In this document: positions 4,291-50,085 of the stretch, one piece after another
Layout of the letters: every line of letters begins with the position of its first letter
Numbering within the stretch: the stretch's first letter is position 1
Virus record (IMG/VR): IMGVR_UViG_3300006030_000029
Span: 1-63,309 of that record
Source: a virus
Lineage: Duplodnaviria > Caudoviricetes
Reading direction: 5' to 3' (one strand)
DNA length: 63,309 nt
Position numbers and translations under genes: made by a program
Notes under the pieces: generated by a model
The model's database searches: none
Told to the model about the DNA's origin: nothing
Seen by the model: the letters and a program-made list of their open reading frames with translations, nothing else

Positions 4291-4342
4291 TTTTGATTAT
4301 GGCGCACGCTGAATTTAAATGCAAGCACTTTCAAGCTACACA

Positions 4343-4513: not shown

Positions 4514-4701
4514 CCCCAATCGAACACCTCATGCAGGACTTCAACAAAACCGCTCCCGTTTGCCGCCAGCACAAGGAGCGGCCTCAGATCGGTTTTGACG
4601 GCGTGTGGTTTATCGAGTGCCCCAAAGGATGTTCAATGCACGATGGCGACAATCCGGGCGTCACGCCGATCATGGTTCGGTGGGTTGAGGAGATGAGGTA
4701 G
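4510..4701 (+). CDS. Small Cys-containing hypothetical protein
   Basis: ATGA-coupled; CxxH and CxxxC motifs. Confidence 0.55.
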   Translation: MTPIEHLMQDFNKTAPVCRQHKERPQIGFDGVWFIECPKGCSMHDGDNPGVTPIMVRWVEEMR

Positions 4702-5008
4702 GTGGAACATCTGCGACATCCTTCGTGTGTGCCGAGTAAATCAATACCGCCACGGGGGCGATTCCGAAATGCCACTCGCTGACATTCCCACAGAGGCGGC
4801 ATTTATAAGTGCCAAGTCCTTCGCCATTGCTCGCCAGCCAGTAGGCTTGGTCGTTGAGCATGTCGTGGCATTTTGGGCAGTAGGTTACGCATCCGCAGTT
4901 CTGGATGATGTCGCGCTCTCTCCGTGTCCACCGCCAACGGCGAACAAGGCGCTGGACCCAACTGCATGGGCCTTCCTGTTCCTCTCTGAGTCTTCTATGA
5001 CTGTTCAC
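4670..5008 (-). CDS. Zn-ribbon protein on a decayed attC-type cassette
   Basis: CPKC and CRLC motifs. The N-terminus 'SWVQRLVRR' is encoded across an attC arm (4938-4965). Confidence 0.6.
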   Translation of the reverse strand: MNSHRRLREEQEGPCSWVQRLVRRWRWTRRERDIIQNCGCVTYCPKCHDMLNDQAYWLASNGEGLGTYKCRLCGNVSEWHFGIAPVAVLIYSAHTKDVADVPPTSSPQPTEP

Positions 5009-6080
5009 ACCACCACCCTCCTTCCCAGCTTCTTAGGCTCAACCTTGGTGTGTAGATTCGTTTCCATGACAATCATTCCGGCCTCGGTCTTGTAAAAGTC
5101 CACGACGTATTTGCAGGCGATGCCTTGGTCAAGATTGCGCCGGATCAAACGTGCGGCCCTCTCAGGCTCAAACACGGATTCGTGGAGTCCTTCAATGATG
5201 GCGTCCTCTAGGGTTTGGTCTTCGTAGGTCATATCTTCTTCGGTATCCCCTGACCAAACACCAGCTTCGGCTTGCTTACAACCACTTTTGGAGCCTCAAT
5301 TTTAGGCTGCGGAATGCTGTAAGGCACGCGGTTATTTGCGGACCAAGCATGGAACGCCGTTGGAAACATGGCATCACCTGTGCAGAGGCAGCAGGTGTTC
5401 CACAAGGAACGCCCTGCGTTGTGGCAGGTGGGGCAGAGGTCAGGCATCACTTCCATTCATGGTTACAAAAAGGGCAATGCCAACTCCAATGGCGGTCGTT
5501 GCGAATTTCGCCAATAACCTTCGAGAAGTGTGTTTTATTCCCAAATAGATGCCGTGACTTTTCCGGTATCTCTTTGCCGGTCAGGTCGGCTTTGCACTTG
5601 GGGCAGGAGTAGGGTGTCATGTGTTTTTCTTCTTTTCGCAAAACATCTCACAAAGCCCATCAACCTCAGTCTCGTAAACGAATGGAAACTCAGCCCGAGT
5701 CTCTCCGTCCTTTGGAGGATTAGTCGTGATGGGCGCTAGGCAGACGTGACCCTTGCAGACTCCGGCGCGGCCTTTCAAGAGTCCTAGATGGATGCAGGAG
5801 TGGCAGGTATTCATATCCTTAACCTTACGCTTATTCGGATGGGCGGTCAAGGTTTGGTTGGGGTGCATGGTTTGCGCCATTGCTTTTTGGGGATTCCTCG
5901 CGGTCTTCTGCCTTTGCAGTCCATCAGTTCAGCGTAAAGCGCATCGCTGATTTCTTGGCCGATGAGTTGGTGCATCCAACCTTTGTGGAGGGGATACTGA
6001 AGACCGAGCGTGGCTATCTGCCGAGCGTTAGGCGCGTTACAGTTGAAAAGGGCCTCAAGTTTTTGTCGGGTTAGGGTCAT
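5005..6080 (-). CDS. Run of five small coupled hypothetical genes (5005-5232, 5229-5456, 5447-5620, 5617-5814, 5847-6080), several with CxxC motifs
   Basis: Mostly overlapping stop/start codons on the minus strand; CPTC, CPKC/CPFC and CHSC motifs. Confidence 0.55.
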
Positions 6081-6583
6081 AGGTTCTTCTTGCGCTTAAA
6101 GTAAGATTGAATTTTTTCCAAATCTTCGTCGGAAAGCAAAAACCACTCTCCTCTTTTTCTTTGTTTCGAGAACATTATATGGAGGTATTTCTCATCTTCG
6201 ATAGTTCCCTCGAAATAAAACATCAGCTCAATCTCTGGTTCTTGGGCCTGTAATGTATTCTCTCTGAATTTTGGACTAGTTCTAGTGTGCCCTATTTTAT
6301 AATAACCAGAGCCGTTCCTCATTACATATATGTTGGTTGCGGAGGTTTTGCGGTCTGGTTTGATGGATGTTTTGGTGCTGTCTCTAAGCATCAGGAGCTT
6401 ATCGTTCATCTCGTCAATGGATTCATCGGAGTCAAAATCGACCAAATAATCATCAAGCATTCCCCTCAAAAAAAGGACTTCACTAATAGAGGGCAAAATT
6501 CCGTTTAGAAATGGTCTGGTCTTACCGCCAAGCGTTCTAAACAAGATGATGTCTCCGACAAGAAATGAACTGGTTGTTTCCAT
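6077..6583 (-). CDS. GIY-YIG superfamily (T5orf172/MUG113-like) nuclease
   Basis: 'IYVMRNGSGYYKIGHT...E..LH..FSKQRKRGEWF'; AT-rich. Start taken at ATG 6583. Confidence 0.8.
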   Translation of the reverse strand: METTSSFLVGDIILFRTLGGKTRPFLNGILPSISEVLFLRGMLDDYLVDFDSDESIDEMNDKLLMLRDSTKTSIKPDRKTSATNIYVMRNGSGYYKIGHTRTSPKFRENTLQAQEPEIELMFYFEGTIEDEKYLHIMFSKQRKRGEWFLLSDEDLEKIQSYFKRKKNL

Positions 6584-16014: not shown

Positions 16015-19000
16015 ATGGCAACTTGGCATGAACTTACCCGCGATCCTGAATATCAGGCGCTGTCACAAAAAGCGAAAGCTCTTGTAAAACAGGGCTTTTT
16101 TCAGCAGCAAATTGCCAACGATCCCGAGTATCAATCCTTCTCTCCCGAGACGCAAAAGGCTATTGCCGATGATTTCTGGAATACCCCAGACGACACCGGC
16201 CAAGGCTACGTCTCGTCGATGCTTGGTTCTGCTGGACGTGGATTTGGCGAGATTGTGCCGGGAACCGTAACTGGCGTTGGCGCATTGCTTGGAAGTGAAG
16301 GTATTCAAGGCGCTGGCGAGTCTTTGCGAGAAGGCCTCGAATACATTGCTCCAGTGAACCCCATCTACCAAGATGACCTTGCCATGAAGGGAATGAATGT
16401 CCTTGGCACCGTTGGTAGCATTATGGCTACTGGTGGCATTGGTGGAGCAGCGGGTCGTGGATTGGCCGCCGAGGGTATTGCGGCAGCAGGAACGCAAGCT
16501 GCCAAGCAGGCTTTGGCACGCCAAGCTATCCAGCGTGGTGCTAGTAGTGCTCTTTACGGAACTGGATTTGCTCAAGGAGCCGCTCAAAAGGCAGAGGAAA
16601 ACAAACGTCTGGGAATGGAGGGGCCTGAAGCCTACCTCAACCTTATTGGCGGCGGTCTTTCCGAAGTATTGCCAGAAATGCTTCCGTTTGGCACTGCTCT
16701 TGAAACGGCTTCCGCTCGACGCATGCTTGGCGGAGTAGATGAGGCTGGCAAAGTGATTCCGGGTATTCGCATGAGCGCCGCCCAAGAAGCTCTTGAAGGT
16801 GGAACGACTCAATCTCTCAGCAACCTTTCGACTCAATTGACCGCTCCAGAAGGAGTGGAAACGCCGGGGCTTTTTGAAGGTTTTGGTGAGGCTGCTTTGT
16901 GGGAAGGTGTGGGAGGTTCCATGTTTGGTGCAATAAACAAACTTGGTCGCACTCCCTTAGATAAACAGACTGAAGCACAAAATCGTATCGCAACTGAAGC
17001 TGGGGCTATCCCAACGAATGCCGTTCCAGAACAGACCAACGAGCAAAAGCTGGCAGCAATGCAAGCTGGAGGAACCACGGTAGTTGACCCTGATGGTAAA
17101 ACGGCGGTTTTGGTTGAGCCGCCAAAGGTAGCGCCAACCGATCCCGGCATCCAAGCAGCGAAGGATTTGGTCACGCCCACCGCCGCTGTTCCCGGTGCTG
17201 AACAGACCGCCGTTCTCGCAGATGAGCAAATCCAGCAAAACGAAGACCTTGCCAAGAACATCGCCGCCTCGATGCCTGCACCGCCAACCGAGCCAACAGT
17301 TCAACCTGTCAAAACGGCTGAAGCGGTTGAGTCGGAAGTAACCGGCATTGAGCCAACATCATCCATTTCCGACTATGATGTGGACGAGGTGGCGGATACT
17401 TGGTTGTCAACTCAACCGAAAGGGATGGCTGAATCTATTGCGAAAAACGCACAACAAGCAGTCAATGAAAATAGACCGTTCTTTGGCGGTTTTGTTGATG
17501 AGAATGGCGATCTTGTGCTGGGGAGGTTTGCAGCTTACAGGCAAGCTCTAAGAAGGATTGGAAAGGATGTAGATATTAACAATCCCATTGGCGATCTTCA
17601 ACGATGGAAGAAATCTGGAGTCAAAAACTATCCAATCATTGATTATGTTCCGGCCCCCTTATCACAAATCTCCTCAGTAACACCTTCTCTGGAAACAGAG
17701 ATGCCTGAAAAGCCCTCGCAAACGATCACTGGCTCCAATGGCGAAATCGCGCCTGAAATGCCGGTGCAGCCCCAAGCTGGCGAGGCAATGGCTTTCCCTC
17801 CCGCTCCCTCCTTGCAAGAAGGTGGAAGCATTCTTGAGCGCGCGATCATCAACAATCCGCCAAGTGTTAGTCCGTTAATTCAACCCGCAACCCCACAAGA
17901 AAATGCCCCTGACCAAATCCCCGACACGGAAAGCCTTCGTCAAGAACCTGAAGACCGAGTTGAAAGCCGGGAAACCAAAAAAACAGGCGTTAGCGATCAG
18001 CTACTCAGTCCAGCGGCAGGCGAAGAAAAAGTAGCTGGCTCAAAAACACCAAAGGGTCAAATAGTTCACGTTCCCGGATGGGGTGATCGAATCCAAGGCG
18101 TTGAAAAAGGTTCTAAATTGAAATTGATTGACGGATCAATCGCTGATGGAACCGTTCTTGGAAGGTCTGTAAATGGCATGTTTGACATGTCAGACGGCAG
18201 TGTGATTGACACTTCTTTTGTAAGCGCCTTCAAACCAGCTGGCGAAAAAAGTTTTGTAAACGTGCTTAAAAAGCAACCAGCAACTTCAGGATTGGTTGAA
18301 GTGTCTGATTCAGAAAGAGGAGGAACTTGGTATGTTCCAAGGAATCAATGGGAATCTGAATCTAGCCTATTGGATCAAGTTGACCCAAATAACCCAACCA
18401 TTAGCAAGGCTATTAGGCCTCGCGATAAATTGCGTGAAGTTGTTGCCTCCAAGCCGCAACAACCAATCACCCCGCAAGGGACGCCGACGCCCGCTACCGA
18501 AGGCATGCCAACGTCGCGAGACGTGGGCACTTCATTTCAACCGGGGGCAACTGGCGAACCAGTTCAGGCAGCACCTCCTGCTGCACAGGCCGTGAAAGCG
18601 ACCGCCCCCGGACCTGTTTCGGGGAAAAAGCCAACTACTCTCGACCTTGCAAGGCAAGAGCTTGAGCAGGCACGCGGCGTTAAGCCCAACTGGGCACCCA
18701 AGGCCGAAAGGTTTGCCCAAATTTACGAGGGTGAGGATATTCGCCCCGAGATAGCCGCAAAAAATGGCGAGGCTCTGATGTCTGCCATTCAGAATAAGCA
18801 GTGGACCGATCTTCTTCATCCCGACAACAAGGTTTCTCGCAAAGTCTGGAAAGAGTGGACCGGCAAAGCTCTTCCGGCTGGACTCAAGGCATCTCAAAAA
18901 GCCTTCAAAGACTTCCTCGACGCGGCATATCCATCTTCCCAACAAACCACAGCAGCCGTAAAACAAACCCCAGCCCCCTCGCGAAAAGGGGCTGGGGCAG

Positions 19001-22000
19001 CCGGTGTTACTGAACGTCAGCCCTCGGGAGGGTCGATTCCCGAGGTTGCGTCAAGTGAAACACAAGAAACGCAGCCGTCAACTAAGGAAAATGACGCTGT
19101 TGCCAAGATTGATCGCCTAGTTTCCAGCGGTGCAAAGCCCGAGGAAATGGACAAGTTTGTGAAATCCTTGTCCGATGACGAGTTCAACGCTTTGGTCGAG
19201 AGCGAGGCATTCGATGTGGACACGAAGCTGGCAATCAAGCCAAAGGACACCTACGACGCCAAGCGTATCAAGCGCCGGAAGTTCGTTGACCAGATCAACG
19301 CCACGGCTGTCCAGTCCAAAAAGACAGCCGAGGAAATCTTCAAGGAGGAAGAAGCCGCTCTCGAACGCCAACGCAAGCTGGATGAGCGCATTCGTCAGTC
19401 CCTCAACTCCATCATCGACCCCGAAAAGACGAATATCGTCCAAGGCACCGTATCTGCCGCCGATGCCGAAGCTGCACGTCGCGTTCTTAACAACTCTGGC
19501 GAGATTCCAAACGCCTTCCTGACGCGCATCTACGCCTCACCCGAAGCCTTCTTGGCCGAGAAATCCAACCAGCGTTACTTCCCGTCCTCCTACGCACGCC
19601 TTCAAGCCGAGTCCAACATTGAAGGTCTTTTCGAGCGCGGTCAGACACTCATCTTCGCGAACAAGATCGGCGTTTCCGACTTGGACCGGCGCATTGGAGA
19701 AAACCTTGGCATCTCTCCCGAGCAAGCCGCAGCCCGTCGTGTGATTGCCCACGAAAACGGGCATCGCAGCGTGGCGCTGTTTACTGCCAGCGAGAAGCGC
19801 GAGTTTCTTGGCTACCTACGCCGCAAATACAATGACGCCCAAATCGACAACCTCGTTCGTGTTTACAGCGAGTATGCGGATTGGCGGACGAATCTTGAGA
19901 GCCGGAATGAGGCCTTGGAGGAGCTTTTCCTGAAGGACTTCGAGCGCCTTGAAAAGATTCCAACCGGAGGCATTTGGGACGACATCGTTCAATTCCTGAA
20001 GCGCGTCTGGCGTCGTCTGACCGGACGCAAAGGTGATCCTACGCTTCAAGACATGAAGGACGTGGTTCGTCTTTTGCGGAATGCCATGCGCCGGACTGCT
20101 GTTCCTAGCTTTACGACAAAGGATGGTGGCGACGTGAAGTTGAGCTACGCTGGCGAGAAGGCCATCGAGAACCTTCCCGAAGAACGTCGCCAGTTCATGC
20201 GCGATTCGCTGGATACCGCAAAGGCGATGGCTGCTGCTGGCAAAGATAGTGAAGAGATTCGCGCTGTGACTGGATGGTTCCCCGGCCCGTATGACGGGAA
20301 GATGCGGTGGGAAGTGCCGGACAACAAAGCCACAGAGTCTTTGGAGGGAACCTTTGCTGCTCGGTCAAACGCGAAAGAATCTAGCGAAGAGCAAAGACGA
20401 CGCTTGTATTTCAGCCATCCCAAAAATGTGCGTGAGTATGAGATTGAACCTTTCAAGGCTAGTTTCTTCGGTAAGAAAACGTATCGAGCTTACAAAAAAT
20501 ATGCCCCAATGGACAGCTTGCTGCGGTCCAATAGGGTTGATTTCTTAGAATCCGAACCTCTTGGAGTTTTTGCCACTGAGGCCGAGGCGCAGGCAGCGAT
20601 TGACCTTGACAAAGCTCAGTTTGAGTCGCGGAGAATGGAGGCAATTCGCAACACCTCATCTTTTGATATTCGCTTTAAGGATGTCCTTCAGCATCCCGAA
20701 CTGTTTGCAGCCTATCCAAAGTTTCAGAATGTTAAAGTCAGCATGGCTCCGGCCTTCTTTGACATCTTTCAAGGTGTTCAAGGATGGTATAACGATAAGA
20801 CGAACACCATCAATGTCACTCCGTATGCCAGCAACAAGCTATCCACGTTGCTGCATGAGATTCAGCACCTTATCCAAAACGAGGAAAACTTTGCTAGAGG
20901 CTCTAATCTAGATGAGGCATTTTCTGGTGTTTCTCAACAAGCAATCTTGGAAAAAGCAAAAGAGATAGCAGATTCGATTCGAGCACAGCAAGAGGTTCTG
21001 AAGGGATACATGCGGAACCGTCTGGCTGACCTTGATAGGGCTACCACTGCTGAAGAAAAAGAGATCGCAGATCGCGGCATTCAAACGATTGGAAAATGGT
21101 TCAATAGCGAACAAAAGACTTTAGAGGCTCTTGAGTCCGGTGATTTAGAAAAGATTTCCAATGTCGTCCAAAACCGTTATTCCGGCGAGTTCTATGAACG
21201 CGTAGCAGGCGAAATCGAAGCCCGAGATGTCCAAGCCCGTCAAAAGCTGACGCCCGAGCAGCGCAAGGCCATCGCGCCATACTCCAGCGAGAACATCGCC
21301 AAGGAAGATGCGATTGTGATGTTTGGTGGTGGCGGTGCTCAGATGAGCATGGCATCAATGTCATCTCAAGATGCCGAATACCTAGCTGCCTTGGAATCCG
21401 GCGACATGGAGAAGGCGCAGCGGATGGTCGATGAGGCGGCGAAGGCTGCTGGGTATGATACTGAGGTTTGGCATGGAACCGACGAAGATTTCACGGTATT
21501 CGGAGAGCAGAGGACTGCTTACGGGTTCTTTTTTGCACCAGATAAGCGAACCGCTGAGTATTATGGCCCTGCTCGTAAGTACAGCCTTCGCATTAACAAG
21601 CTAGCAGACTTAACTGACCCCGCTGTTTTTGATGAAGTGGCGGGCGAGGCTATTTGGTCAGACACTAAAGAGAGAAAAAAGGAAGACGTGGATGCTTGGA
21701 TCGAGTCGGTGGTTAAAGACACCCCGAACGGAAGGGCGTTTGCGGCTAACGCATTGGGCCTATCTGAGTCTGAGATGGCTGAATTCGAGTCGTTCGAGGA
21801 TATAATTTCTGAGCTTCAAAAGGAATGGGAGGGGGTCGTGGAAACCGTTGAGGCTGACTATCCCAAAGCACTCGAATCTCTCGACAAAGCAGCCCCACAG
21901 TTCAATCAAGAAGTCGAGGACGCTAGGCAAGCCCACGACAATCTTGAGCAGTCTTGGTATATGGAGTATCAAGATGACTTCATAAGGGCTGCACAAACTC

Positions 22001-25000
22001 TTGGTTATGACGGAGTGTTCATGTATGATCCAGCCGGAAGCACGGGTGGATCACCAGAGTCTTACGTCGTCTTCTCTCCCGAACAGATCAAATCCGCCGA
22101 CCCCGTTACCTACGGCGAAGCTGGAAACGTGATCCCGCTCTCACAGCGTTTCCAAGCCGCATCGCCAGACATCCGTTTCTCCCGCGTAGAATACGCCTCC
22201 GACTACTCCGCTGCATCCAGCGCAGGCGCACAGCTTGCCCGCGACACCATTTACGATGACCGAATCATCGAGATGCGCGATGCCATCCGTCGTGCCTACG
22301 AGGCCATGCCGAAGCCGAACAGTGTGGCGGTGCCGATTGGCGAGTTGTTCGCAAAGACCGAGGAACTGATGCCCGGCGTCACGCAGGACGAGTTCAGCAA
22401 CGTGCTTCAAGACCTGTTCGAGGACAACGGGGCGGTTTTGCAGGAGGGTGAGTCTGCTTTCGATGTATTCACCCCCGAAGGCCGTCGCGCAGGATTCGCT
22501 GTAATCATGCCGAAGCGTGCTGTGGCCTCGCGGGTTGAGACGGAAGGTGAGGCTGTAAAGAACTTCCAAGAAGAGATTGAGGCGATTGAGGGCAACTCTC
22601 TCAATGCTTTCTCGAAGGCTAGGCCAATGGAGGGCGCTGACGCTGAAATCTACACCGTTAAGCCTAGTAAATTCTACAAACAGGTCGCTAATGATTTCGT
22701 CAATAAGCTCATAGACGAAGGCAACTCGATTGAAAGCATCGGTGAATCCTTGTTCTCCGAAGATTTCCTTCAGGAAGTTGGCATCAAAAACAACATGCCA
22801 GCTTTGGTCATGCTTGTTGCCGTGGTCAAGGATCGCGTTTCTAAACAGTCCCGTGATACAAGCGATGGCGACACGGGCAATCTTCGCCGTGTGATCCTTC
22901 AAAAGCTGGATCGTAGACTGGCCGGTTACTGGCAGAACTTGGGGACCAACTCAGGCCGTGCTCAAGGTATTCGCAGCTACATTACCAAAAGCCCCGAGTT
23001 TAGCTGGATGTTCATCTTCGACAGGGCGAACGAAAACCTAGAGAAAGAAGGCAAGCTCGCCGCTGCCCGCGTTGCATCCGACCTGCCTCAGACCGCTGAC
23101 AACCTGCAAAAAACTGATGCCAAAGCTGGCGAAGATGCTGGTGAGCAGGTGGCGGATGATTTGGAAGATAATCAGGACGCGATTGATCTTGCCGAAGGTG
23201 AGGCAACTCTGGATCAAAAGGGCAAAACCCTTTGGGAGAAATTCAAAGACCTGATTCGTAAGCGTGGCATTGCCATGAGGGCTTTGAATGCCTTGCGTGC
23301 TGGCAATAAGGCAAAAGCCTCCATTTCCAGCGAGGAGCGGAATACCATCTCGCAAATGTCGGAGGAAGAGCTGGTTAAGTTCATCGCTGGCATCGACAAG
23401 GAAATGGCTGGTGTTTTTGACGAGTTCACCAAGACTCCAGCCACCCGCAAGAAGCGCGAAAAGATGGTCGCCACGGCCAAGAAGCGTGTGGAGCAGGGTA
23501 AGCCGATTGATGTTACATCGGTCAATACTGCGGATGTTATTGACGGAATATTCGTTGGCTTCAACGACCGCGAAAGCATAATCAATGAAGTTGGCGACAC
23601 TCTTCTCAAGGCTGCTGAACAACGCAAAGTTAAGCCGAAGCAGAAAACCGCCATTCAGGATTTGATCGCGGCAATCCGCCAAACTTTGACCGCCAACCTC
23701 AAAGGTGAGCAAATCAAAGCAGACCAACCTTCTCTTGGAAAGCTGCTTGGAAAAACCTTTGCTCAACAAGGAAGTGAGGCGGCATTGTTTGCTAAATCAT
23801 GGGAAGATGGCCGTAAAAAGGTTCGCGCCATGCTCGCTGAAATGGGTGTGGATGAGGCTAGTTTGGATGAAGAGCTTGATGCCATCATGCCGCCAACTCC
23901 AACCTTGGCTTATGCTCCTGCTGCCGCCAAGAAGGCAATCAACGTAGCCATCAAAGAGGCCGGACTCACACCTCAAGACGCCCTTTCTAATCCAGCTTTC
24001 TTCCGTGAATCCATCATGGCTAAGTTCAATGAGGCGGCTGAAAAGGATAACCTCACCGAAGAAGGATGGAATCAAAGCGGCAAGGCCTTGGCAGAAAAAG
24101 CCATCAACGAGTTCATTGACAACGCCAGAATCAAAGCTGAGAAACGCTCGGCAGAATCCAAGGCTAAGATGGAGAAAAGAAAGGTGGAGATTGCCGACAA
24201 AAGGGCGTCTCAACTCATCTACTCTGTCGAAGAGCGATTCCGCCAAGGCGAAAAAGACCTTCAGACTTCAAAGAGTGGAGACTCGATTAACAAAGCCTTC
24301 CGCGATCAGGTTAAAGACCCGGTTTCAAAATTCGAGTTCTTCCAGCGCCTAGCCAAGTTGAATGTGTCTCAGAATGTGTCTGAGCACCTTTTTAGAACAG
24401 CCGCACGCGAGAAGGCAGACCTAAAAGCAATGGAGGCATTCCGCCGCCTTGAAGGGCCAAATGCGCTGCAAACCATGCAGCGTGAAATCTCCGCGCTTCG
24501 TCCCGGCGAGCAGGCTCCATTCTCCAAGCAAATCCCGTGGCGCAAGCTGCTCTCCCAAAAGGCAGCTACGGTCAAGATTTACCGCCAGCGCATCTTCGAC
24601 ACCATATCGTCTGAGGAATCCTTTGCCGACCTTGACGATGCTCAAAAGGCCAAACTGGCAGACCTGTTGACGAAAGCATGGGAATCCAAGCGTGAAGCGA
24701 TCTTGGACCGCATGGTTAAGAATGTCATCAATCAAGAGCAAGCCGCTGGACGCCTCACCAAAGAAGGCGCTGACGCCCTCCGTTCACAGCGTCAAAAGCT
24801 GGTCGAGGACATTAACCTTGGCATCCTTGACGAGGACCGCCTGATGAAGCATCTCGCAGACAAGTTCGGCATCAAGTCGGAGTTCACCGAGGCCGAGCGA
24901 GCCAATATCGACCGCCTTCTCGACATCCTCCAAGACGACAAACTCAACGAGGTGAAGCGCAACAAGGCTGGCTATGAGCTTCTTGAGGCTCTGAGTTCGG

Positions 25001-27003
25001 CCGCGAAGATTCCAATCGCCAAATTGCTCGCTGATTACTGGGTGTCCTCCGTGCTTTCCGGCGTCAATACAGCGGCATCTATTGCAATGGCTGTGATGAG
25101 CGGTGGTTACGAGCTTACGACCGGCGCATTCCGCATACTCCGTGCCGGATTCACCAATCCGAAGGAACTCCCGGCTGAAATTGCAGCTTCGTTCAAGGCG
25201 ATGGCAGAGTTCCTCAAGGCATTCGGTCGTGAAGGCCGTCTGGCATGGCAGTATCTCGTCACTGGCGACCGGGCGTTCCTTGATCCTTCGATGAACACGG
25301 TCCTGAACGACCTGAATTACGACAGCATCGGCAAGACGGTTTCGCTGGCCGAAAAGATGGCGAAGTCCGACAAGATCATGCAGCGCGTGATGGGTATCTG
25401 GATGCGCTCTGTGAGTCGCCTTCTGACCGCTCTGGACTCGTTCAACAGCGGAGTGACGAAAGCTGGGGCGTTGCCTATTGTTTTCCGCCAACTCAATCTG
25501 GACGCGGAAAGCCTGAAGCAGGCCACCGAGAAATATAATCTCCAGCTTTACCGAGACAGGGTAATCCAGCGTGACTTTAACGGAAACAAACCAACCACAG
25601 CGCACGACAAGGCATTAGTGGACTCCTACGCCAAGGCTGAAATGATGGCAGACCTTCAAGAGTTCGGCAAATTCAGCGAGAACGCCGACTTCTTTGGTCA
25701 GCAAGGCGCGATGACTCTTGATCCGACTGGCGTTGGCGGATTCATCTACTCATCCATCAAGTCATTCACAGGTGGAGCAACCAACCGTGCTGACAAGTTC
25801 CTCGCCGAAGCTGAACTCGAATGGAAGCAAGCTGATGGCGCAGACAAGACGGCCAAAGGTCTTCAGCTTGCATTCGCCTACTTCCTTCAGTTTGGAGCCT
25901 ACAACATCGCAAACTTGGCTGGCCTTCGCTTCGCACGTTTCGCTGGAAACAAGTTCAACCAAGGATTGAGCTTCATTCCGGGGATTGGGATGCTTCGCAT
26001 GTATGAGGCGACGGTCAAAGATTCCAAGATCGAAGCCAAAGAAGCCTTCACCGACATGATTCTGCGTAATCAGACGGCTGGCCTTCTCTTTGCTATAATC
26101 GGTGGAATGGCAATTAAAGCCATCATGGACGAGCCTGACGACGAGAAGCGTGGATTTTTCTGGAACGGCGGATGGGCAAACCTCACACCGGATCGCAAGC
26201 AACAGAAGCTCGCAGCCGGTCAGAAGGAATACACCATCGGTATTCCCGGAGGTATTTCATTCAACTACCAAAACTGGCCTATCTCGCCCATCATGGCCGC
26301 GATTGGAAGCCTCTCCGACCTTGTTCGCTTCTCTCCCGAACAATGGAACGAGAAGTCCATCGCCGACCGATTGGTTTCGGCTGCCGCATCTGGCGTGTTT
26401 TCTGCCGGTGAAATTCCCGCTCTCTCCGGCTTCCAGACCCTTTTCGGCAACAACCTGTCCTCCAAAGACCCGAACGAGAAGCGCCTTGACCGATTCGCTA
26501 AGGTGATGGCTGGATGGGGTGGAGGCTTCGTGCCTCGCATCCTCAAGGACATCGACTTTATGGCCGATCCGGGGCTGCGTAAATACGAATCACTTTGGGA
26601 GCAAACAGCGTCTCATATCCCAGTTTACCGCCGCTACTCAGGCGAGGAATACTACGACATCCTCGGCAAGCAGATTGAGCGCAAGGTCTGGCCGGGATCG
26701 CGTGAGTTTATGGAGCTTGAAAGCGCCCCTGAATACCGCACTCTCGGCAAGCTAAACAGCCGTGGAATCTGGCTTACTCCCGCCAACGCCGAGCACCGCA
26801 TGGTGGGTAAGGGCCGATTCAAGCGCAAATTAACACAGGAAGAGGCTGATGCCTACTCGCTGGAAACCGGCAAGGGCTACCGCCAGATGCTACTTCGCTA
26901 CGGCAGTCGTCTTGAACAGATGCCGACAGAGCGTGCCCGCGCCTTCCTGATGGACAAAGCTGACGAGGTGCGTGACCGTGCGTTGCAGAAGATCACACGA
27001 TGA
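16015..27003 (+). CDS. Giant (3662 aa) polyvalent DNA-ejection protein with zincin peptidase(s), LPD23-like and ART-PolyVal-like domains
   Basis: Gly/Ala-rich N-terminus; HENGH; 'TGWFPGPYDGKMRWEVPD'; 'LLHEIQHLIQ...GEIEARDV'; 'VWHGT..F..F...GFFF...GYDGV...YVVFSPEQIKSADPVTY...IPLSQRF'. Confidence 0.8.
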   Translation: MATWHELTRDPEYQALSQKAKALVKQGFFQQQIANDPEYQSFSPETQKAIADDFWNTPDDTGQGYVSSMLGSAGRGFGEIVPGTVTGVGALLGSEGIQGAGESLREGLEYIAPVNPIYQDDLAMKGMNVLGTVGSIMATGGIGGAAGRGLAAEGIAAAGTQAAKQALARQAIQRGASSALYGTGFAQGAAQKAEENKRLGMEGPEAYLNLIGGGLSEVLPEMLPFGTALETASARRMLGGVDEAGKVIPGIRMSAAQEALEGGTTQSLSNLSTQLTAPEGVETPGLFEGFGEAALWEGVGGSMFGAINKLGRTPLDKQTEAQNRIATEAGAIPTNAVPEQTNEQKLAAMQAGGTTVVDPDGKTAVLVEPPKVAPTDPGIQAAKDLVTPTAAVPGAEQTAVLADEQIQQNEDLAKNIAASMPAPPTEPTVQPVKTAEAVESEVTGIEPTSSISDYDVDEVADTWLSTQPKGMAESIAKNAQQAVNENRPFFGGFVDENGDLVLGRFAAYRQALRRIGKDVDINNPIGDLQRWKKSGVKNYPIIDYVPAPLSQISSVTPSLETEMPEKPSQTITGSNGEIAPEMPVQPQAGEAMAFPPAPSLQEGGSILERAIINNPPSVSPLIQPATPQENAPDQIPDTESLRQEPEDRVESRETKKTGVSDQLLSPAAGEEKVAGSKTPKGQIVHVPGWGDRIQGVEKGSKLKLIDGSIADGTVLGRSVNGMFDMSDGSVIDTSFVSAFKPAGEKSFVNVLKKQPATSGLVEVSDSERGGTWYVPRNQWESESSLLDQVDPNNPTISKAIRPRDKLREVVASKPQQPITPQGTPTPATEGMPTSRDVGTSFQPGATGEPVQAAPPAAQAVKATAPGPVSGKKPTTLDLARQELEQARGVKPNWAPKAERFAQIYEGEDIRPEIAAKNGEALMSAIQNKQWTDLLHPDNKVSRKVWKEWTGKALPAGLKASQKAFKDFLDAAYPSSQQTTAAVKQTPAPSRKGAGAAGVTERQPSGGSIPEVASSETQETQPSTKENDAVAKIDRLVSSGAKPEEMDKFVKSLSDDEFNALVESEAFDVDTKLAIKPKDTYDAKRIKRRKFVDQINATAVQSKKTAEEIFKEEEAALERQRKLDERIRQSLNSIIDPEKTNIVQGTVSAADAEAARRVLNNSGEIPNAFLTRIYASPEAFLAEKSNQRYFPSSYARLQAESNIEGLFERGQTLIFANKIGVSDLDRRIGENLGISPEQAAARRVIAHENGHRSVALFTASEKREFLGYLRRKYNDAQIDNLVRVYSEYADWRTNLESRNEALEELFLKDFERLEKIPTGGIWDDIVQFLKRVWRRLTGRKGDPTLQDMKDVVRLLRNAMRRTAVPSFTTKDGGDVKLSYAGEKAIENLPEERRQFMRDSLDTAKAMAAAGKDSEEIRAVTGWFPGPYDGKMRWEVPDNKATESLEGTFAARSNAKESSEEQRRRLYFSHPKNVREYEIEPFKASFFGKKTYRAYKKYAPMDSLLRSNRVDFLESEPLGVFATEAEAQAAIDLDKAQFESRRMEAIRNTSSFDIRFKDVLQHPELFAAYPKFQNVKVSMAPAFFDIFQGVQGWYNDKTNTINVTPYASNKLSTLLHEIQHLIQNEENFARGSNLDEAFSGVSQQAILEKAKEIADSIRAQQEVLKGYMRNRLADLDRATTAEEKEIADRGIQTIGKWFNSEQKTLEALESGDLEKISNVVQNRYSGEFYERVAGEIEARDVQARQKLTPEQRKAIAPYSSENIAKEDAIVMFGGGGAQMSMASMSSQDAEYLAALESGDMEKAQRMVDEAAKAAGYDTEVWHGTDEDFTVFGEQRTAYGFFFAPDKRTAEYYGPARKYSLRINKLADLTDPAVFDEVAGEAIWSDTKERKKEDVDAWIESVVKDTPNGRAFAANALGLSESEMAEFESFEDIISELQKEWEGVVETVEADYPKALESLDKAAPQFNQEVEDARQAHDNLEQSWYMEYQDDFIRAAQTLGYDGVFMYDPAGSTGGSPESYVVFSPEQIKSADPVTYGEAGNVIPLSQRFQAASPDIRFSRVEYASDYSAASSAGAQLARDTIYDDRIIEMRDAIRRAYEAMPKPNSVAVPIGELFAKTEELMPGVTQDEFSNVLQDLFEDNGAVLQEGESAFDVFTPEGRRAGFAVIMPKRAVASRVETEGEAVKNFQEEIEAIEGNSLNAFSKARPMEGADAEIYTVKPSKFYKQVANDFVNKLIDEGNSIESIGESLFSEDFLQEVGIKNNMPALVMLVAVVKDRVSKQSRDTSDGDTGNLRRVILQKLDRRLAGYWQNLGTNSGRAQGIRSYITKSPEFSWMFIFDRANENLEKEGKLAAARVASDLPQTADNLQKTDAKAGEDAGEQVADDLEDNQDAIDLAEGEATLDQKGKTLWEKFKDLIRKRGIAMRALNALRAGNKAKASISSEERNTISQMSEEELVKFIAGIDKEMAGVFDEFTKTPATRKKREKMVATAKKRVEQGKPIDVTSVNTADVIDGIFVGFNDRESIINEVGDTLLKAAEQRKVKPKQKTAIQDLIAAIRQTLTANLKGEQIKADQPSLGKLLGKTFAQQGSEAALFAKSWEDGRKKVRAMLAEMGVDEASLDEELDAIMPPTPTLAYAPAAAKKAINVAIKEAGLTPQDALSNPAFFRESIMAKFNEAAEKDNLTEEGWNQSGKALAEKAINEFIDNARIKAEKRSAESKAKMEKRKVEIADKRASQLIYSVEERFRQGEKDLQTSKSGDSINKAFRDQVKDPVSKFEFFQRLAKLNVSQNVSEHLFRTAAREKADLKAMEAFRRLEGPNALQTMQREISALRPGEQAPFSKQIPWRKLLSQKAATVKIYRQRIFDTISSEESFADLDDAQKAKLADLLTKAWESKREAILDRMVKNVINQEQAAGRLTKEGADALRSQRQKLVEDINLGILDEDRLMKHLADKFGIKSEFTEAERANIDRLLDILQDDKLNEVKRNKAGYELLEALSSAAKIPIAKLLADYWVSSVLSGVNTAASIAMAVMSGGYELTTGAFRILRAGFTNPKELPAEIAASFKAMAEFLKAFGREGRLAWQYLVTGDRAFLDPSMNTVLNDLNYDSIGKTVSLAEKMAKSDKIMQRVMGIWMRSVSRLLTALDSFNSGVTKAGALPIVFRQLNLDAESLKQATEKYNLQLYRDRVIQRDFNGNKPTTAHDKALVDSYAKAEMMADLQEFGKFSENADFFGQQGAMTLDPTGVGGFIYSSIKSFTGGATNRADKFLAEAELEWKQADGADKTAKGLQLAFAYFLQFGAYNIANLAGLRFARFAGNKFNQGLSFIPGIGMLRMYEATVKDSKIEAKEAFTDMILRNQTAGLLFAIIGGMAIKAIMDEPDDEKRGFFWNGGWANLTPDRKQQKLAAGQKEYTIGIPGGISFNYQNWPISPIMAAIGSLSDLVRFSPEQWNEKSIADRLVSAAASGVFSAGEIPALSGFQTLFGNNLSSKDPNEKRLDRFAKVMAGWGGGFVPRILKDIDFMADPGLRKYESLWEQTASHIPVYRRYSGEEYYDILGKQIERKVWPGSREFMELESAPEYRTLGKLNSRGIWLTPANAEHRMVGKGRFKRKLTQEEADAYSLETGKGYRQMLLRYGSRLEQMPTERARAFLMDKADEVRDRALQKITR
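17903..18034 (+). CDS. 43-aa basic protein nested in the +1 frame of the giant gene
   Basis: MPLTKSPTRKAFVKNLKTELKAGKPKKQALAISYSVQRQAKKK*, matching the pattern of a widespread small phage protein family ('MPL..S....F..N...E..AGKP.KQA.AI.YS'). Confidence 0.7.
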   Translation: MPLTKSPTRKAFVKNLKTELKAGKPKKQALAISYSVQRQAKKK

Positions 27004-46756: not shown

Positions 46757-47482
46757 ATGTCTAAGAAATACTACATGCCGAATCACCTTCTGGAACTCGG
46801 TGACATGCCGATGCACCAAAAGATGCTTCACATGATTCTGTGGGAAAGGGCTGACTGCATCGGTTTTGCCAAGATCAACTGGGAGATTTTCTCCGGCATG
46901 GCTGGACGCTACTCGTTCTGCCACAAGGACATTGCTGAACTCCACCCTTGGGTATGGCCTCATGGCGTTGGGGAGGTGTTTCTACCCAACTACCTCAAGA
47001 TTCAGACGCCAACCCTGTCCAAGACCTCTCGAAGCTGTGGCAAAATTTGGGATGAGTTAAAGAATCGGTTTGGAGCCACCCGAGAAAACACCGCTCCATA
47101 CCTTCTCTTTTTGAAGGATAAGGGATTTCGTCATCTGGCCCCTGACATCCCCGACGAGTATTCTGGCGAAGGACCGAAGCCCACTTGGTATGTCAAGCAT
47201 GAGGAAAGGCTCAAAAAGGCGCAGGAATACCCAGAACCGTCTTGGCAGGATGAGTTGCTGACAGGCTACCGCAGACTACTTGATAACTACATAAGTCGGG
47301 CTAAGAATATCACCTCGAAGTCAGATGCCGAGCATGAGTTCTACTTGGACGCCAAAAGAATTGAGAATGTCCAGTCTCAAATCCAGCAAATGATAAACGA
47401 CGGAATTGGGGAAAGAATCATCATTCAGCAGATCAACCAAGCTATCGACAAAAACCGCCTGTTTGTTTACACACCACGATGA
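46757..47482 (+). CDS. Paralogue of the replication-initiator N-terminal domain
   Basis: Aligns by eye with the N-terminus of 30703-31791. Confidence 0.55.
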   Translation: MSKKYYMPNHLLELGDMPMHQKMLHMILWERADCIGFAKINWEIFSGMAGRYSFCHKDIAELHPWVWPHGVGEVFLPNYLKIQTPTLSKTSRSCGKIWDELKNRFGATRENTAPYLLFLKDKGFRHLAPDIPDEYSGEGPKPTWYVKHEERLKKAQEYPEPSWQDELLTGYRRLLDNYISRAKNITSKSDAEHEFYLDAKRIENVQSQIQQMINDGIGERIIIQQINQAIDKNRLFVYTPR

Positions 47483-47802
47483 AACTAGAATTTATTGAAA
47501 AAACCAACATACCAACGGCTCTTAACATTAAGGATGCGTGGTCTTTGCGAGATGAAGCTGATGAACTTAATTATCAAAGCCAACAAACTTTGCGCCAAGC
47601 TATGAAGGAAATGCGTGGTCGCATGGGGCTGAGTGCCAACAGCTTCGGCAAGCTCTGCGGCGTCACCCCTCAATACATCTTTGCCTTGGAGGCTGGACGA
47701 GCTAAATGGAACGACCGCATGATCCTCAAGCTGGAAAATAGCCTGAGCCAAAAAGAAGCCGCCTTGGCGTCCGAAGACCTCCAAAGCGGCTCAGAGGCGT
47801 AA
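47479..47802 (+). CDS. XRE-family HTH protein
   Basis: 'MRGRMGLSANSFGKLCGVTPQYIFALEAGR'. Confidence 0.75.
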   Translation: MKLEFIEKTNIPTALNIKDAWSLRDEADELNYQSQQTLRQAMKEMRGRMGLSANSFGKLCGVTPQYIFALEAGRAKWNDRMILKLENSLSQKEAALASEDLQSGSEA

Positions 47803-47868
47803 ATTGCCTGTGTTAGTGCGTAAATGTTTACATCTGTTTACGCTGGAGTCAATTTATAGCCTATGCGC

Positions 47869-47897
47869 TTGACCCAACCCTCCCTCCACCATATAGT
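47869..47897 (+). promoter_or_regulatory. Sigma70-like promoter driving the XRE gene and cassette array
   Basis: TTGACC-N17-TATAGT. Confidence 0.65.
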
Positions 47898-47912
47898 TAA
47901 TCGCAACACAAT

Positions 47913-48215
47913 ATGAACCTCCCCAACATCCAGTCCCAACACCCGTTCATTCACACTGAGTTTGTTTGCGCCTCCAATCTTGAGAGCCAAGCTGCCGAAC
48001 TGCTAAAAAAAGCCAATCAAACGCGCATCAACGCCCTTGAACAACTCCGCATGCAGCAAGGCTGGTCAAAAAGCCACCTTGCCAAGGTGATTGGTTTCCA
48101 GCCTCAGTTCATCTTCCGCATTTTGCAGGGTAAGTATCCCATGAAGGAGTGTTACTTGGAAAAAGTGGATGCGGGGTTGAACAACCAAGGCCAGCCACCG
48201 GAGGGCACCCGATGA
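47913..48215 (+). CDS. XRE-family HTH protein; C-terminal residues encoded by attC site 1
   Basis: 'LRMQQGWSKSHLAKVIGFQPQFIFRILQG'; ends NNQGQPPEGTR* inside the hairpin. Confidence 0.75.
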   Translation: MNLPNIQSQHPFIHTEFVCASNLESQAAELLKKANQTRINALEQLRMQQGWSKSHLAKVIGFQPQFIFRILQGKYPMKECYLEKVDAGLNNQGQPPEGTR

Positions 48216-48273
48216 CTCCCGATCTACCAGAAGCGTCCGCGCCCGGAGGTTGCGCTGCGCCGACTGGTTCTGC
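48176..48273 (-). mobile_element. attC-type recombination site 1
   Basis: + strand: GTTGAAC-N6-GGC CAGC CA CC ... GG(T)TG(C)GCTG(C)GCC-N5-GTTCTGC, with three extrahelical bases. Confidence 0.75.
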
Positions 48274-48640
48274 GCTGGACCTTGCGCTCGCGCTGCTGGC
48301 CGTCTCTCCGGCCCGAGGCCGGGAATCGCTGCCGTGGGTGCAGGCTGGCATGGCGCTGTCTCCGCACTGCCGGGAGAATGAAAACGTCACCGAGGCCGCG
48401 CTGCGGATCGTCGCTGAGTCGCGGGAATGGTATCGCCGCCGCGTCGCATTGCTGGGCCGCGCGCAAAAGCACATGCGCGATCCCGAGCGGACGCTGGTGT
48501 GCGACATCCTGGCCAACGGTCAACTGCTGCCCGATCCGAACGGCGAGCGATACGGCTTTCCGACCACGGGCAACGAGCATGCGCAGAACGCAATAGCTGT
48601 GGCACCGCCGACACAAGACTCCAACGAAGAAGCAAAATGA
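48212..48640 (+). CDS. Cassette gene 1, hypothetical (142 aa)
   Basis: Starts in the attC1 loop (GGAGGG...ATGA) and stops in the attC2 loop; visibly GC-richer than the flanks. Confidence 0.7.
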   Translation: MTPDLPEASAPGGCAAPTGSALDLALALLAVSPARGRESLPWVQAGMALSPHCRENENVTEAALRIVAESREWYRRRVALLGRAQKHMRDPERTLVCDILANGQLLPDPNGERYGFPTTGNEHAQNAIAVAPPTQDSNEEAK

Positions 48641-48701
48641 GTGATACCCTAAAACTCGAAGAATCCGCAGGTGGCGGTTGTCCACCAGCGACTTGTTCTG
48701 C
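48583..48701 (-). mobile_element. attC-type recombination site 2
   Basis: + strand: GCAGAAC-N6-GCT GTGG CA CCGCC ... GGCGG(T)TG(T)CCAC(C)AGC-N5-GTTCTGC; same bulge geometry as site 1. Confidence 0.85.
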
Positions 48702-48966
48702 GTATTCCGAAAATCTCGAACCGTGCCGTATGCGCGAGGGAGGAGTTCCTGAGTTCGATGGCACCCGGTGGGAAAGTGGAATGCACCTCATGGGTGATCT
48801 GGTAGCGGAACGTCTCCCGGAGCCGTGCTGGATTCGGAACGGACGATCAGCAATGAAGATCGACATTGGGGAAAGCCGCATCATGGGGCGTGGGATCATG
48901 CTCGGCTACGATGTGACTGAATTTTCGCAGAACACCAAGCTCTCCGACGCGCAGCGTTCGGAGTAG
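48637..48966 (+). CDS. Cassette gene 2, hypothetical (109 aa)
   Basis: Starts in the attC2 loop (ATGA overlap) and stops inside attC3. Confidence 0.7.
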   Translation: MSDTLKLEESAGGGCPPATCSAYSENLEPCRMREGGVPEFDGTRWESGMHLMGDLVAERLPEPCWIRNGRSAMKIDIGESRIMGRGIMLGYDVTEFSQNTKLSDAQRSE

Positions 48967-48980
48967 CGCCACGGTTCTCC
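48927..48980 (-). mobile_element. attC-type recombination site 3 (short)
   Basis: + strand: GCAGAAC-N5-GCT CTCCGA CGC-GCA-GCG(T)TCGGAG(T)AGC-N6-GTTCTCC; 3 bp/bulge/6 bp/bulge, like attC aadA7. Confidence 0.75.
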
Positions 48981-49018
48981 TCTTGCCATCCCCTCAAATT
49001 ACCGTAAGTATCGCCTAA

Positions 49019-49237
49019 ATGGCATACCCTCCCAAGAACCTCAAAGGCCGTCGCTTTGGCCGTCTGAAAGTCGTCAGCTTCCTTGAACGCAATGAGCACT
49101 CCAACTCCAAATGGCTTTGTCGCTGCGACTGTGGCAAGGAAACCGAGGCTTTCTACCAACACCTCACCCGTGGCGAAAAGAAGTCGTGCGGGAAATGCGG
49201 GTTGGTGAAGCGAGGGGTTAAACCGAAGAAGAAATGA
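49019..49237 (+). CDS. Second stand-alone HNH-associated Zn-ribbon module
   Basis: 'LKGRRFGRLKV...WLCRCDCG...SCGKC'; paralogue of 44702-44914. Confidence 0.75.
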   Translation: MAYPPKNLKGRRFGRLKVVSFLERNEHSNSKWLCRCDCGKETEAFYQHLTRGEKKSCGKCGLVKRGVKPKKK

Positions 49238-49416
49238 ACCACCAACTCGCCACCCCTAAATCCGAGTCCGAACGCCGCGAGGAGCGTCGTAGCTTCCAGC
49301 AGCTTCACCCCGGCAATCGTTTTCGGCTGATGGCCGGACTGTCGATGTTACCTGAAAAGGAACCACGACCTGTGAATGAACGTGTTGCGATCCGGTAAAT
49401 TCGAGTATTCTCCCTC

Positions 49417-49824
49417 ATGGACTCTCTCATCACCCAGCTTCGCGCCCTTCAATTCCTAGCTCATCGGGCGCACAACGTCATCAAAGGACCGACTTTCTTC
49501 GAGGACCATGAGTTCCTTGGCGAGCTTTACCCGGCCTACGAAGCAGCTTACGACAGCGCCGTGGAGCGTGTGATTGGTCTCGGAACTGAGAAGTTGAGCC
49601 TCGCCAAGATTAACATCGCAGCGTCCAAGATGTCCGACATCCTGCCTGACGAGACGAAGCCCGAGCCTTTCTTCCGCGCCATTCTTAAAGGCGAGAAAGA
49701 CCTGTGCGTGATGATTGATGAGGCGGTGAAAAAGGCCTCGCAAGGCACTCAGAACTTGCTTCAAGGAATCTGCGATCAAAGTGAGATGCGCCAATACCAG
49801 TTGAAACAGCGTCTTTCCGCTTGA
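49417..49824 (+). CDS. Dps/ferritin-like protein
   Basis: 'HRAHNVIKG..FFEDHEFLGELY.....YDSAVER', a Dps-like ferroxidase pattern. Confidence 0.75.
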   Translation: MDSLITQLRALQFLAHRAHNVIKGPTFFEDHEFLGELYPAYEAAYDSAVERVIGLGTEKLSLAKINIAASKMSDILPDETKPEPFFRAILKGEKDLCVMIDEAVKKASQGTQNLLQGICDQSEMRQYQLKQRLSA

Positions 49825-49854
49825 AGTTTACGGGAATAGAAAGCACATTTACTC

Positions 49855-50085
49855 ATGGCAAAGAAATCCCCATCACTATCAGTCGGTCGAGGCGAGAAAC
49901 TTCCTGTGTCGAAGGGCGCGGGTTTGACCGCCAAGGGTCGCGCCCGTTTAAACCGTGAAACCGGCAGCAATCTCAAAGCTCCAACCAAGGACAAAGACAA
50001 TCCTCGACACAAAAGTTTCTGCGCCCGCTCTGCTTCATGGGATGGAGAACGCGGCAAAGCGGCCCGCAAGCGTTGGGGTTGTTGA
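49855..50085 (+). CDS. Small basic phage protein (DUF6321-like)
   Basis: 'GLTAKGRA..NRETGSNLKAP......R.KSFCAR...A..RWGC'. Confidence 0.7.
   Translation: MAKKSPSLSVGRGEKLPVSKGAGLTAKGRARLNRETGSNLKAPTKDKDNPRHKSFCARSASWDGERGKAARKRWGC

Follow-up and report, generated by a model that had tools for sequence, protein, structure and literature searches.

A probable integrase-less array of integron-type cassettes at the 3' end of a phage regulator gene

We analyzed a complete virus record from IMG/VR, IMGVR_UViG_3300006030_000029 (63,309 bases; CheckV completeness of 100%), which we call the window. At positions 48176-48980, two small genes follow the gene for a helix-turn-helix (HTH) regulator. It is very probable that the region represents a CALIN (a cluster of attC sites that has no integron integrase), in which two integron-type cassettes were inserted serially at the conserved AAC of a resident hairpin, at the 3' end of the HTH gene. 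By definition, a CALIN has at least two closely spaced attC sites and no integron integrase in the vicinity (Qi, Rajabal, Ghaly, Tetu & Gillings 2023, PMC9892861). Here, two strong sites and a weak third one fall within 805 bp, and the record encodes no integron integrase. The features of the locus are listed below (aa, amino acids; nt, nucleotides).

48176-48273 (+): attC site 1, bottom strand; a hybrid, with the 5' box GTTGAAC from the phage and the remainder from cassette A
48583-48701 (+): attC site 2, bottom strand; AAC box, 5-nt spacer, bulged stem, 63-nt loop, and GTT box
48927-48980 (+): site 3; the AAC box of cassette B joined to the resident phage hairpin CTCCGA...TCGGAG, and then GTTCTCC
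48183-48589 (+): cassette A, 407 bp, about 70% G+C; leader, GTTCTGCGC box at 48267-48275, gene body, and GCGCAGAAC at 48581-48589
48590-48933 (+): cassette B, 344 bp; leader, GTTCTGCG box at 48695-48702, gene body, and CGCAGAAC at 48926-48933
47869-47897 (+): predicted sigma-70-like promoter, TTGACC-17-TATAGT, with 10 of 12 matches to the consensus
47913-48215 (+): gene for the HTH-type regulator, 100 aa; the native sequence goes as far as the Asn codon AAC, where the 3' end is cut
48212-48640 (+): gene A, 142 aa, with a helical core; it crosses the AAC codon into cassette B, and its stop codon is in an ATGA overlap with gene B
48637-48966 (+): gene B, 109 aa; the HTH gene's own tail, displaced, forms the final 11 codons (48934-48966)

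To find related viral contigs, we used the HTH protein and the ferritin-like protein that is encoded downstream. Across the window and seven contigs, the distance from the HTH gene to the ferritin gene is 609, 759, 1003, 1405, 1504 (the window), 1915, 1915, or 2007 bp. Two of the contigs (L005 and L006) are empty at this site, and there the C-terminus of the HTH protein is ...GLN(T/A)QLSDAQ(S/R)SE*. In the remaining relatives, the same AAC holds one or two unrelated cassettes. The HTH gene of the window, L001, L002, L003/L008, and L004 is broken directly after the Asn codon AAC, and the tail (T/A)QLSDAQRSE closes the last inserted gene. In the window, this AAC is at 48180-48182, and cassette A supplies the last 11 codons and the stop codon of the HTH gene. 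The hairpin of site 3 is present without cassettes in L005 and L006, and judging from these alleles, it appears to be the target that receives the cassettes.

The breakpoints are at the expected positions. According to blastn, homology to the related contigs stops at 48182 and restarts at 48934-48935, so the insert is 48183-48933, give or take the shared GAAC(A). A boundary after 48589 divides this insert into the two cassettes. The limits of cassette A are given by the end of the left-flank homology to the seven related contigs, at 48182, and by a joint in another contig, at 48590, and are uncertain by a few bases inside GAACA. An earlier description of this DNA, made from the sequence alone (the sequence-only reading), had suggested that related phages be compared for gain or loss of cassettes with breakpoints at AA|C, and breakpoints at AAC are what we found (48182|48183 and 48933|48934).

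Natural freshwater populations carry several forms of the locus. We compared contigs from four other freshwater and plankton metagenome runs over 47400-49600. One contig (with a depth of 144) has the empty form, joining 48182 to 48930. In two runs, contigs have cassette A only, with a joint from 48590 to 48927. One contig spans 48587-48933 with zero mismatches and then enters a different sequence that resembles a cassette leader, and another departs after 48183 into other cassette-like sequence.

Opening the circle of an integron cassette at its conserved triplet separates the two boxes of an attC site, which is a known mark of this type of cassette. Every one of the 8 distinct cassettes in the window and the related contigs has xxxxxAAC as its end, and this end is complementary over 7-11 nt to the cassette's own internal GTTxxxxx, which lies about 85-105 nt from the cassette's start. 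The pairing sequence is different in each cassette:

Cassette box pair 1: GCGCAGAAC with GTTCTGCGC
Cassette box pair 2: CGCAGAAC with GTTCTGCG
Cassette box pair 3: GTGCCCTGAAC with GTTCAGGGCAC
Cassette box pair 4: GCATAAC with GTTATGC
Cassette box pair 5: ACGGCGAAC with GTTCGCCGT
Cassette box pair 6: GCTCAGAAC with GTTCTGAGC
Cassette box pair 7: AAGGCGAAC with GTTCGCCTT
Cassette box pair 8: GCCCAAC with GTTGGGC

Across 8 loci, the pairing between the two ends of a cassette averaged 7.8 nt and was at least 8 nt in 16 of 21 intervals, versus an average of 4.4 nt for the two boxes within a site. In the window, the GTT of site 1 pairs with the AAC of site 2 over 9 nt, and the GTT of site 2 pairs with the AAC of site 3 over 8 nt. 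Site 1's own boxes pair over 4 nt only. (The sequence-only reading had noticed both the complementarity across sites and the mismatched ends of site 1, and both are real.) If the 8-mer GTTCTGCG and its complement are counted together, there are 8 occurrences in the window, as compared to 2.75 expected, and none of 100 shuffles reached 8. Four of the copies lie within 700 bases, on alternating strands: 48267(+), 48582(-), 48695(+), and 48926(-).

The same type of site is found next to integron integrases. A homologue of gene A lies inside a run of nine cassettes in a 56.8-kb viral contig (L037). This array stops 35 nt before the gene for a 336-aa protein that passes TIGR02249, which is the NCBIfam model for integron integrases (280.7 bits, with a cut-off of 265 bits), and that is 42% identical to IntI1. 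Another viral contig (L057) encodes an integrase that is 77% identical to L037's and is also above the TIGR02249 cut-off (269 bits). An integrase-like protein from L050 is under the cut-off, at 215 bits. The viral status of L037 rests on its label from IMG/VR and CheckV and on a giant open reading frame (ORF) that is weakly similar to one in the window (5176 and 3662 aa; 29% identity over 342 aa); among 10 large ORFs of L037 that we compared to PHROGs, no structural protein was recognized. L058, a complete viral record of 62,954 bases, is a decaying phage-borne integron. It has a remnant of intI (98 aa, with the middle deleted; 6001-6297, + strand) beside cassettes, with attC matches at 3660-3760, 3955-4084, and 4267-4360.

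We built a covariance model, R1, from six of the L037 sites only. (A MAFFT alignment of all eight L037 sites was poor, so we used six. R1 also replaced a detector for cassette arrays that was based on chains of 7-mers, which was too noisy.) With filters off, the top match to R1 in the window is 48583-48701 on the + strand, which is site 2 (43.4 bits, E = 3.6e-10), and the second match is 48176-48273 on the + strand, which is site 1 (31.5 bits, E = 1.2e-6). At sites 1-3, the matches have exactly the coordinates of the three hairpins in the sequence-only reading, and we confirmed that each has an AAC 5' box and a GTT 3' box on the + strand. The boxes are GTTGAAC/GTTCTGC, GCAGAAC/GTTCTGC, and GCAGAAC/GTTCTCC. 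That reading also placed all of the bulges on one arm; in the model alignment this is borne out for sites 1 and 2, where they are all on the 3' arm of the + strand. There was no match to R1 on the minus strand of sites 1-3 at E ≤ 10. Site 1 contains the ATGA stop/start overlap at 48212-48215, and the terminal loop of site 2 carries the start of gene B.

On four resistance plasmids, R1 recognizes class 1 attC sites as well: sites for aadA2 (E = 7.9e-7 and 1.1e-6), sites for aac(6')-Ib (E = 8.7e-4 and 7e-4), and one other site (E = 6.8e-4). In other words, a single covariance model detects both class 1 and phage attC sites. Over 34 viral loci, R1 has 42 matches at E ≤ 0.1. Among 35 sites that were aligned (A5), the AAC and the GTT are invariant (35/35), 92.8% of the stem cells are paired, as compared to 64.8% in shuffles (0 of 500 shuffles were as high), and 19 of the 20 stem pairs have compensatory changes. 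The terminal loops range from a few nt to about 60 nt.

To determine the polarity of the sites, we considered the crossover and the bulges. The recombined bottom strand of an attC site is 5'-R'(..AAC)-L'-loop-L''(extrahelical bases)-R''(GTT..)-3', and the cut separates the A from the C (Nivina et al. 2016, PMC5027507). In the window, it is the 5' AAC box of the + strand that holds the crossover, and the bulged bases lie on that strand's 3' arm, so the + strand is the bottom strand of attC. In the class 1 controls, the strand that matches R1 is antisense to the cassette gene for all 5 of the matches at E < 1e-3, and intI is on the R1 strand, to the right of the sites. In phages, the matches are on the sense strand of the genes. 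L037 has the same geometry of intI and sites as the class 1 controls, but its genes are on the R1 strand, so its sites are oriented normally and its ORFs are inverted. The 5' crossover box, the 3'-arm bulges, and the class 1 controls all support the claim of the sequence-only reading that the genes are antisense to the usual cassette layout.

In a typical cassette, the top strand carries the ORF, and attC follows at its 3' end. These cassettes instead have ORFs that are on the bottom strand and start inside attC. It follows that attC is the 5' leader of each gene and that the AAC is read as an in-frame Asn. At 31 of 39 sites, a long ORF that comes from upstream on the same strand reads the AAC in frame as one of its codons, although some of these loci are near-duplicates. 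At those 31 sites, the upstream ORF stops 4-88 nt after the AAC, often overlapping the start codon inside the site. (The 39 sites are 35 of the 42 matches to R1 and four sites in the window. We excluded three duplicate rows from L051 and four matches with E well above 0.001.)

The window itself is not a complete integron: intI is present in L037 and L057 and absent from the window. We searched all 63,309 bases, in six frames, and found 0 matches to PF00589 and 0 matches to TIGR02249, in agreement with the earlier statement that no tyrosine recombinase is visible.

The data above establish how the sites are built, where the breakpoints lie, how each cassette's boxes pair, that the sites are akin to those beside a true integron integrase, their polarity, and the lack of an integrase. 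From these observations, we infer which enzyme acts, that the sites are active at present, and how the genes are expressed. On the + strand, a cassette consists of an attC-derived leader, a gene body, and xxxxxAAC. The leader comprises a spacer, an arm, a terminal loop, a bulged arm, and the GTTxxxxx box, and the terminal loop holds the start codon of the cassette along with a stop codon that ends the upstream frame. Once a cassette is circular, its last box would pair with the GTT box, which would restore a complete attC hairpin. A trans-acting integron integrase would then cut the folded + strand (the bottom strand of attC), separating the A from the C of AAC, and exchange the cut strand with the resident site. 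The integrase might be supplied by the host or by a co-infecting phage that bears an integron, such as one of the L037 type. The sequence-only reading had proposed that the phage acquires and shuffles accessory genes with a host's integrase. The attC-like sites and the integrase-less array fit the first part of this proposal; the source need not be the host, and other viral contigs with the same type of cassette (L037 and L057) encode integron integrases of their own.

Expression would depend on read-through from the phage promoter at 47869 and on translational coupling at the ATGA overlaps, not on an integron Pc promoter. The HTH gene, gene A, and gene B are joined by two such overlaps, and the promoter likely drives all three as one unit. 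As for the previous proposal of expression from a phage promoter at 47869, a promoter-like site is indeed there (TTGACC-17-TATAGT, a consensus match at 10 of 12 positions), and the genes may be expressed from it. Translational coupling at attI1 via ORF-11 has been described for class 1 integrons (PMC8876359).

A broader interpretation, to which we give about an even chance, is that freshwater phages have their own kind of integron, with "backwards" cassettes whose gene is on the bottom strand of attC, and that some of these phages encode the integrase and others borrow it. It could equally well be right or wrong that, in this kind of integron, the loop and arm of attC encode the start codon and a disordered leader, with the AAC as an in-frame Asn. 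With the gene on the bottom strand, its start inside attC, and an in-frame AAC, any cassette could be inserted at the end of a phage gene that is translated. If this is true, then such a cassette would need no integron promoter, as read-through and translational coupling would express it immediately; L037 and L057 encode the integrase, and the window's phage would only offer a landing hairpin.

Alternatively, the array could be a relic: an ancestor lost intI, the cassettes are now immobile, and the relatives differ because of homologous recombination in the flanks. Loss of intI does occur, given the cassettes beside the deleted 98-aa intI remnant in L058, and an integrase is absent from both the window and the complete record of L001. 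The flanks are 79-95% identical among the relatives, which would permit homologous exchange. However, the site is within a conserved gene, and in the 8 genomes that we compared, there is no trace of intI or attI beside it. Also, forms with A and B, with A only, and with neither, with breakpoints at the ends of cassettes, require site-specific gain or loss at some point. We consider a relic to be improbable, and it bears on the present activity of the sites only, not on the identity of the element.

Two other explanations do not involve an integrase at all. Shuffling by short homology has been proposed for the promoter/stem-loop cassettes of T4-type phages, and in this locus, a CGACTTGTT-like motif near the GTT box, together with the hairpins, might provide short homologies for phage recombination or template switching. 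The 3' arms do have a short conserved stretch in common, phage genomes are mosaic, and there is a second junction at 47866-47869, beside the promoter. But the crossover is at the AAC box and not at the conserved motif on the GTT side, and the sequences that flank the breakpoints are unrelated except for GAAC(A). Such box pairing, with a different sequence in each of 8 cassettes, is expected only of ends that were once connected as a circle with one fixed cutting point, and the same type of site adjoins integron integrases, so we view this explanation as very unlikely. It is even harder to believe that these are ordinary hairpins (terminators or RNA structures) between paralogous genes, with cores that arose by duplication or chance. 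The folding energies are unremarkable and site 3 looks like a terminal hairpin of the HTH gene, as this explanation would have it, but a scan for terminators was negative at all three sites, and the matches to R1, the breakpoints, and the covariation speak against chance. We also rejected the idea that genes A and B are paralogues, as they are not detectably related (BLASTP E = 5.0).

Several results do weigh against our preferred explanation, which is that integron-type cassettes were inserted by a trans-acting integrase. The integrase that would act on this phage and the recombination itself are both putative. Site 3 is only weakly similar to attC (it is the fourth match to R1, at 48927-48980 on the + strand, with 11.8 bits and E = 0.65), and of the resident sites in the empty relatives, the one in L006 has 10.5 bits and the one in L005 has no match at E ≤ 1. 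R1 rests on just six sites and missed both cassette sites of L003, which we assigned by eye. The A5 alignment was fitted to R1, which favours its pairing counts. The boxes in the window depart from the RYYYAAC/GTTRRRY consensus; only the AAC triplet is conserved among all attC sites (Nivina et al. 2016, PMC5027507). Sites 1 and 2 do not fold any better than shuffled sequences: on the + and - strands, the z scores were +0.68 and +0.80 for site 1, -0.91 and -0.29 for site 2, and -1.92 and -1.50 for site 3, none of which is significant. Since the folding energies are unremarkable, the case rests on the covariance model and the comparative breakpoints instead. The joints in natural populations are from assembled contigs, not reads, and are 1-7 nt away from the predicted boundaries. 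A homologue of gene B in L035 lacks a recognizable attC leader (it is a degenerate copy). Finally, we did not find a close bacterial relative of the L037 integrase in 185,579 species genomes, which is weak evidence, as exact 8-residue words were needed; the scan found only distant tyrosine recombinases, whose longer matches were 23-32% identical, with higher values on short segments.

The general idea of CALINs in phages is not new. In temperate and virulent phages, Qi et al. (2023, PMC9892861) described integrons as well as 17 clusters of attC sites without an integrase. They found that IntI1 recombined 5 of 6 phage attC sites, and proposed that the integrase acts in trans. Like their phage CALINs, the window has an integrase-less array, bounded by attC sites, in a phage genome. 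DNA methyltransferases are another similarity, as they are found among the cargo in both studies (here, Dam in L037 and a weak match to a C5-methylase in L001). But their cassettes have the direction "most typical of bacterial arrays," while the window has inverted ORFs, in-frame insertion, and both empty and filled alleles. We searched their text by term and found no mention of bottom-strand ORFs, insertion inside a gene, or metagenomic phages. In published full texts, we did not find a description of bottom-strand ORFs that start inside attC, or of in-frame insertion at the end of a gene, or of empty and filled phage alleles; earlier descriptions are possible. The sequence-only reading had suggested that this layout was not described before as a phage system. 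That is too broad, as integrase-less attC clusters in virulent phages are in print (PMC9892861), and it is apparently correct for the inverted, in-frame layout.

The sites share many features with canonical class 1 attC sites (PMC5027507), including the AAC and GTT triplets, an unpaired spacer, bulges on one arm, and a variable terminal loop. Also as in canonical sites, the pairing of the R boxes belongs to the cassette, and the crossover is at the AAC of the strand with the 3'-arm bulges. Unlike in canonical cassettes, the ORFs in the window are on the bottom strand, each gene has attC at its 5' end with the start codon inside, and the AAC is in frame. And unlike canonical integrons, the window has boxes that deviate from RYYYAAC and has no attI, Pc, or intI.

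Two other systems deserve comparison. In the reverse integrons of Treponema (PMC7691350), intI is flipped, the cassettes are downstream and are co-transcribed with it, the order is ORF and then attC, and there is a stop codon in R''. The window, which lacks intI, is not a reverse integron. In L037, the cassette genes and intI do have the same direction, as in Treponema, but the array is upstream of intI, the geometry of attC and intI is the usual one, and it is the ORFs that are flipped. In the "attG" preprint (10.1101/2022.09.11.507474), the integrase drives insertion of cassettes outside of att sites. The window's cassettes were likewise inserted at a genomic site outside of an integron platform, but the target here is a resident hairpin that has its own AAC...GTT ends and that is reused by different cassettes in relatives.

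The accepted view is that cassettes enter in the "correct" orientation for the platform's promoter, and that the integrase's choice of strand enforces this orientation. The phage cassettes have the usual recombination geometry with the genes reversed, so to speak wired to the transcription and translation of the recipient gene. If this is general, then phages have adapted the integron as a plug-in system for accessory genes, possibly including anti-defence genes, and lytic phages that lack an integrase participate in the pool of cassettes. Searches that assume that the gene comes before attC would mis-annotate such cassettes or miss them. Because empty, single, and double alleles are present in natural freshwater samples, the system is directly testable.

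What do the cassettes encode? Gene A has 98 homologues in metagenomes, with a conserved core (MRDPERTLVCDILANGQLLPD). In its AlphaFold model, the predicted local distance difference test (pLDDT) score is above 90 for the core and below 50 for the leader and the tail; in the model of gene B, it is below 50 for residues 1-21, the leader. The leaders that are encoded by attC, and the read-through tails, are predicted to be disordered. Neither gene belongs to a Pfam or PHROG family, and Foldseek found no match to either in the PDB at E ≤ 0.001. The homologues of gene B are alike up to ...EFSQN and then diverge, and in 12 of 15, the residue at the AAC codon is still Asn. P0100, which is the closest homologue, has the leader of gene B and a different tail, which fits a cassette that comprises leader, body, and AAC; another homologue (P0101) has a tail that resembles the window's.

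Some cassettes in other contigs have recognizable domains. One L037 cassette encodes a Dam methylase (Pfam, E = 9e-27). L001, which is the closest relative of the window, has two different cassettes at the same site, with ORFs at 4312-4707 (+) and 4814-5554 (+). One of these has a match to the Acb2/Tad1 hairpin domain that is just under the cut-off (26.3 vs. 27 bits), and the other has a weak match to C5 cytosine methylases (20.5 bits, with a cut-off of 22). These matches are a thin basis for the idea that the cargo may be counter-defence genes.

The window's phage encodes a large terminase, a primase/helicase, and an exonuclease. Near-identical DNA is present in freshwater and plankton metagenome contigs from 14 studies, and when we compared 47000-50000 to deposited phage genomes with blastn, there were zero matches. 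The 3662-aa ORF at 16015-27003 (+) has the polyvalent-protein domains LPD23 and ART-PolyVal (ADP-ribosyltransferase). This ORF had suggested an "N4-like" label for the phage, which we rejected, as the ORF has these domains and does not match a polymerase family. The HTH protein has matches to HTH_31 and HTH_3 that are under the Pfam cut-offs, and it matches PHROG 1373 (E = 1.3e-5). Across gene A, the G+C content climbs from about 0.50 to 0.70.

There may be other cassettes in these phages. The third-best match to R1 in the window is 4939-4984 on the - strand (23.8 bits, E = 2e-4), which is the sense strand of a 112-aa ORF at 4670-5008 (-). The site is at the 5' end of this ORF, whose start is in a GTGA overlap with the upstream gene. 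The site's GTTCGCCGT box is similar to that of the L002 cassette, and no matching ...GGCGAAC box was found downstream; this site may be a fixed or decayed cassette. In L010, there is a strong attC match downstream of the ferritin-like gene (4868-4996, + strand, E = 2.5e-9), which suggests that this group of phages has a second landing site. The corresponding place in the window has no significant match to the model.

L003 has two cassettes (3689-4426, + strand; L008 has the same array) with near-identical leaders, MAEE.DTQ.P..EAVDPASTGS. These are read as one fused ORF of 246 aa, as the first AAC is not followed by a stop codon. L002 and L003 also have an extra gene, of 93 or 116 aa, between the gene for a 72-aa HNH-like protein and a 54-aa ORF (at about 49237 in the window). 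The second junction mentioned above (47866-47869) is just 5' of the -35 hexamer of the promoter. The relatives' homology to the window begins at about 47866-47868, the genes at 46757-47802, upstream of the junction, are absent from the relatives, and contigs from two metagenome runs also diverge at this junction.

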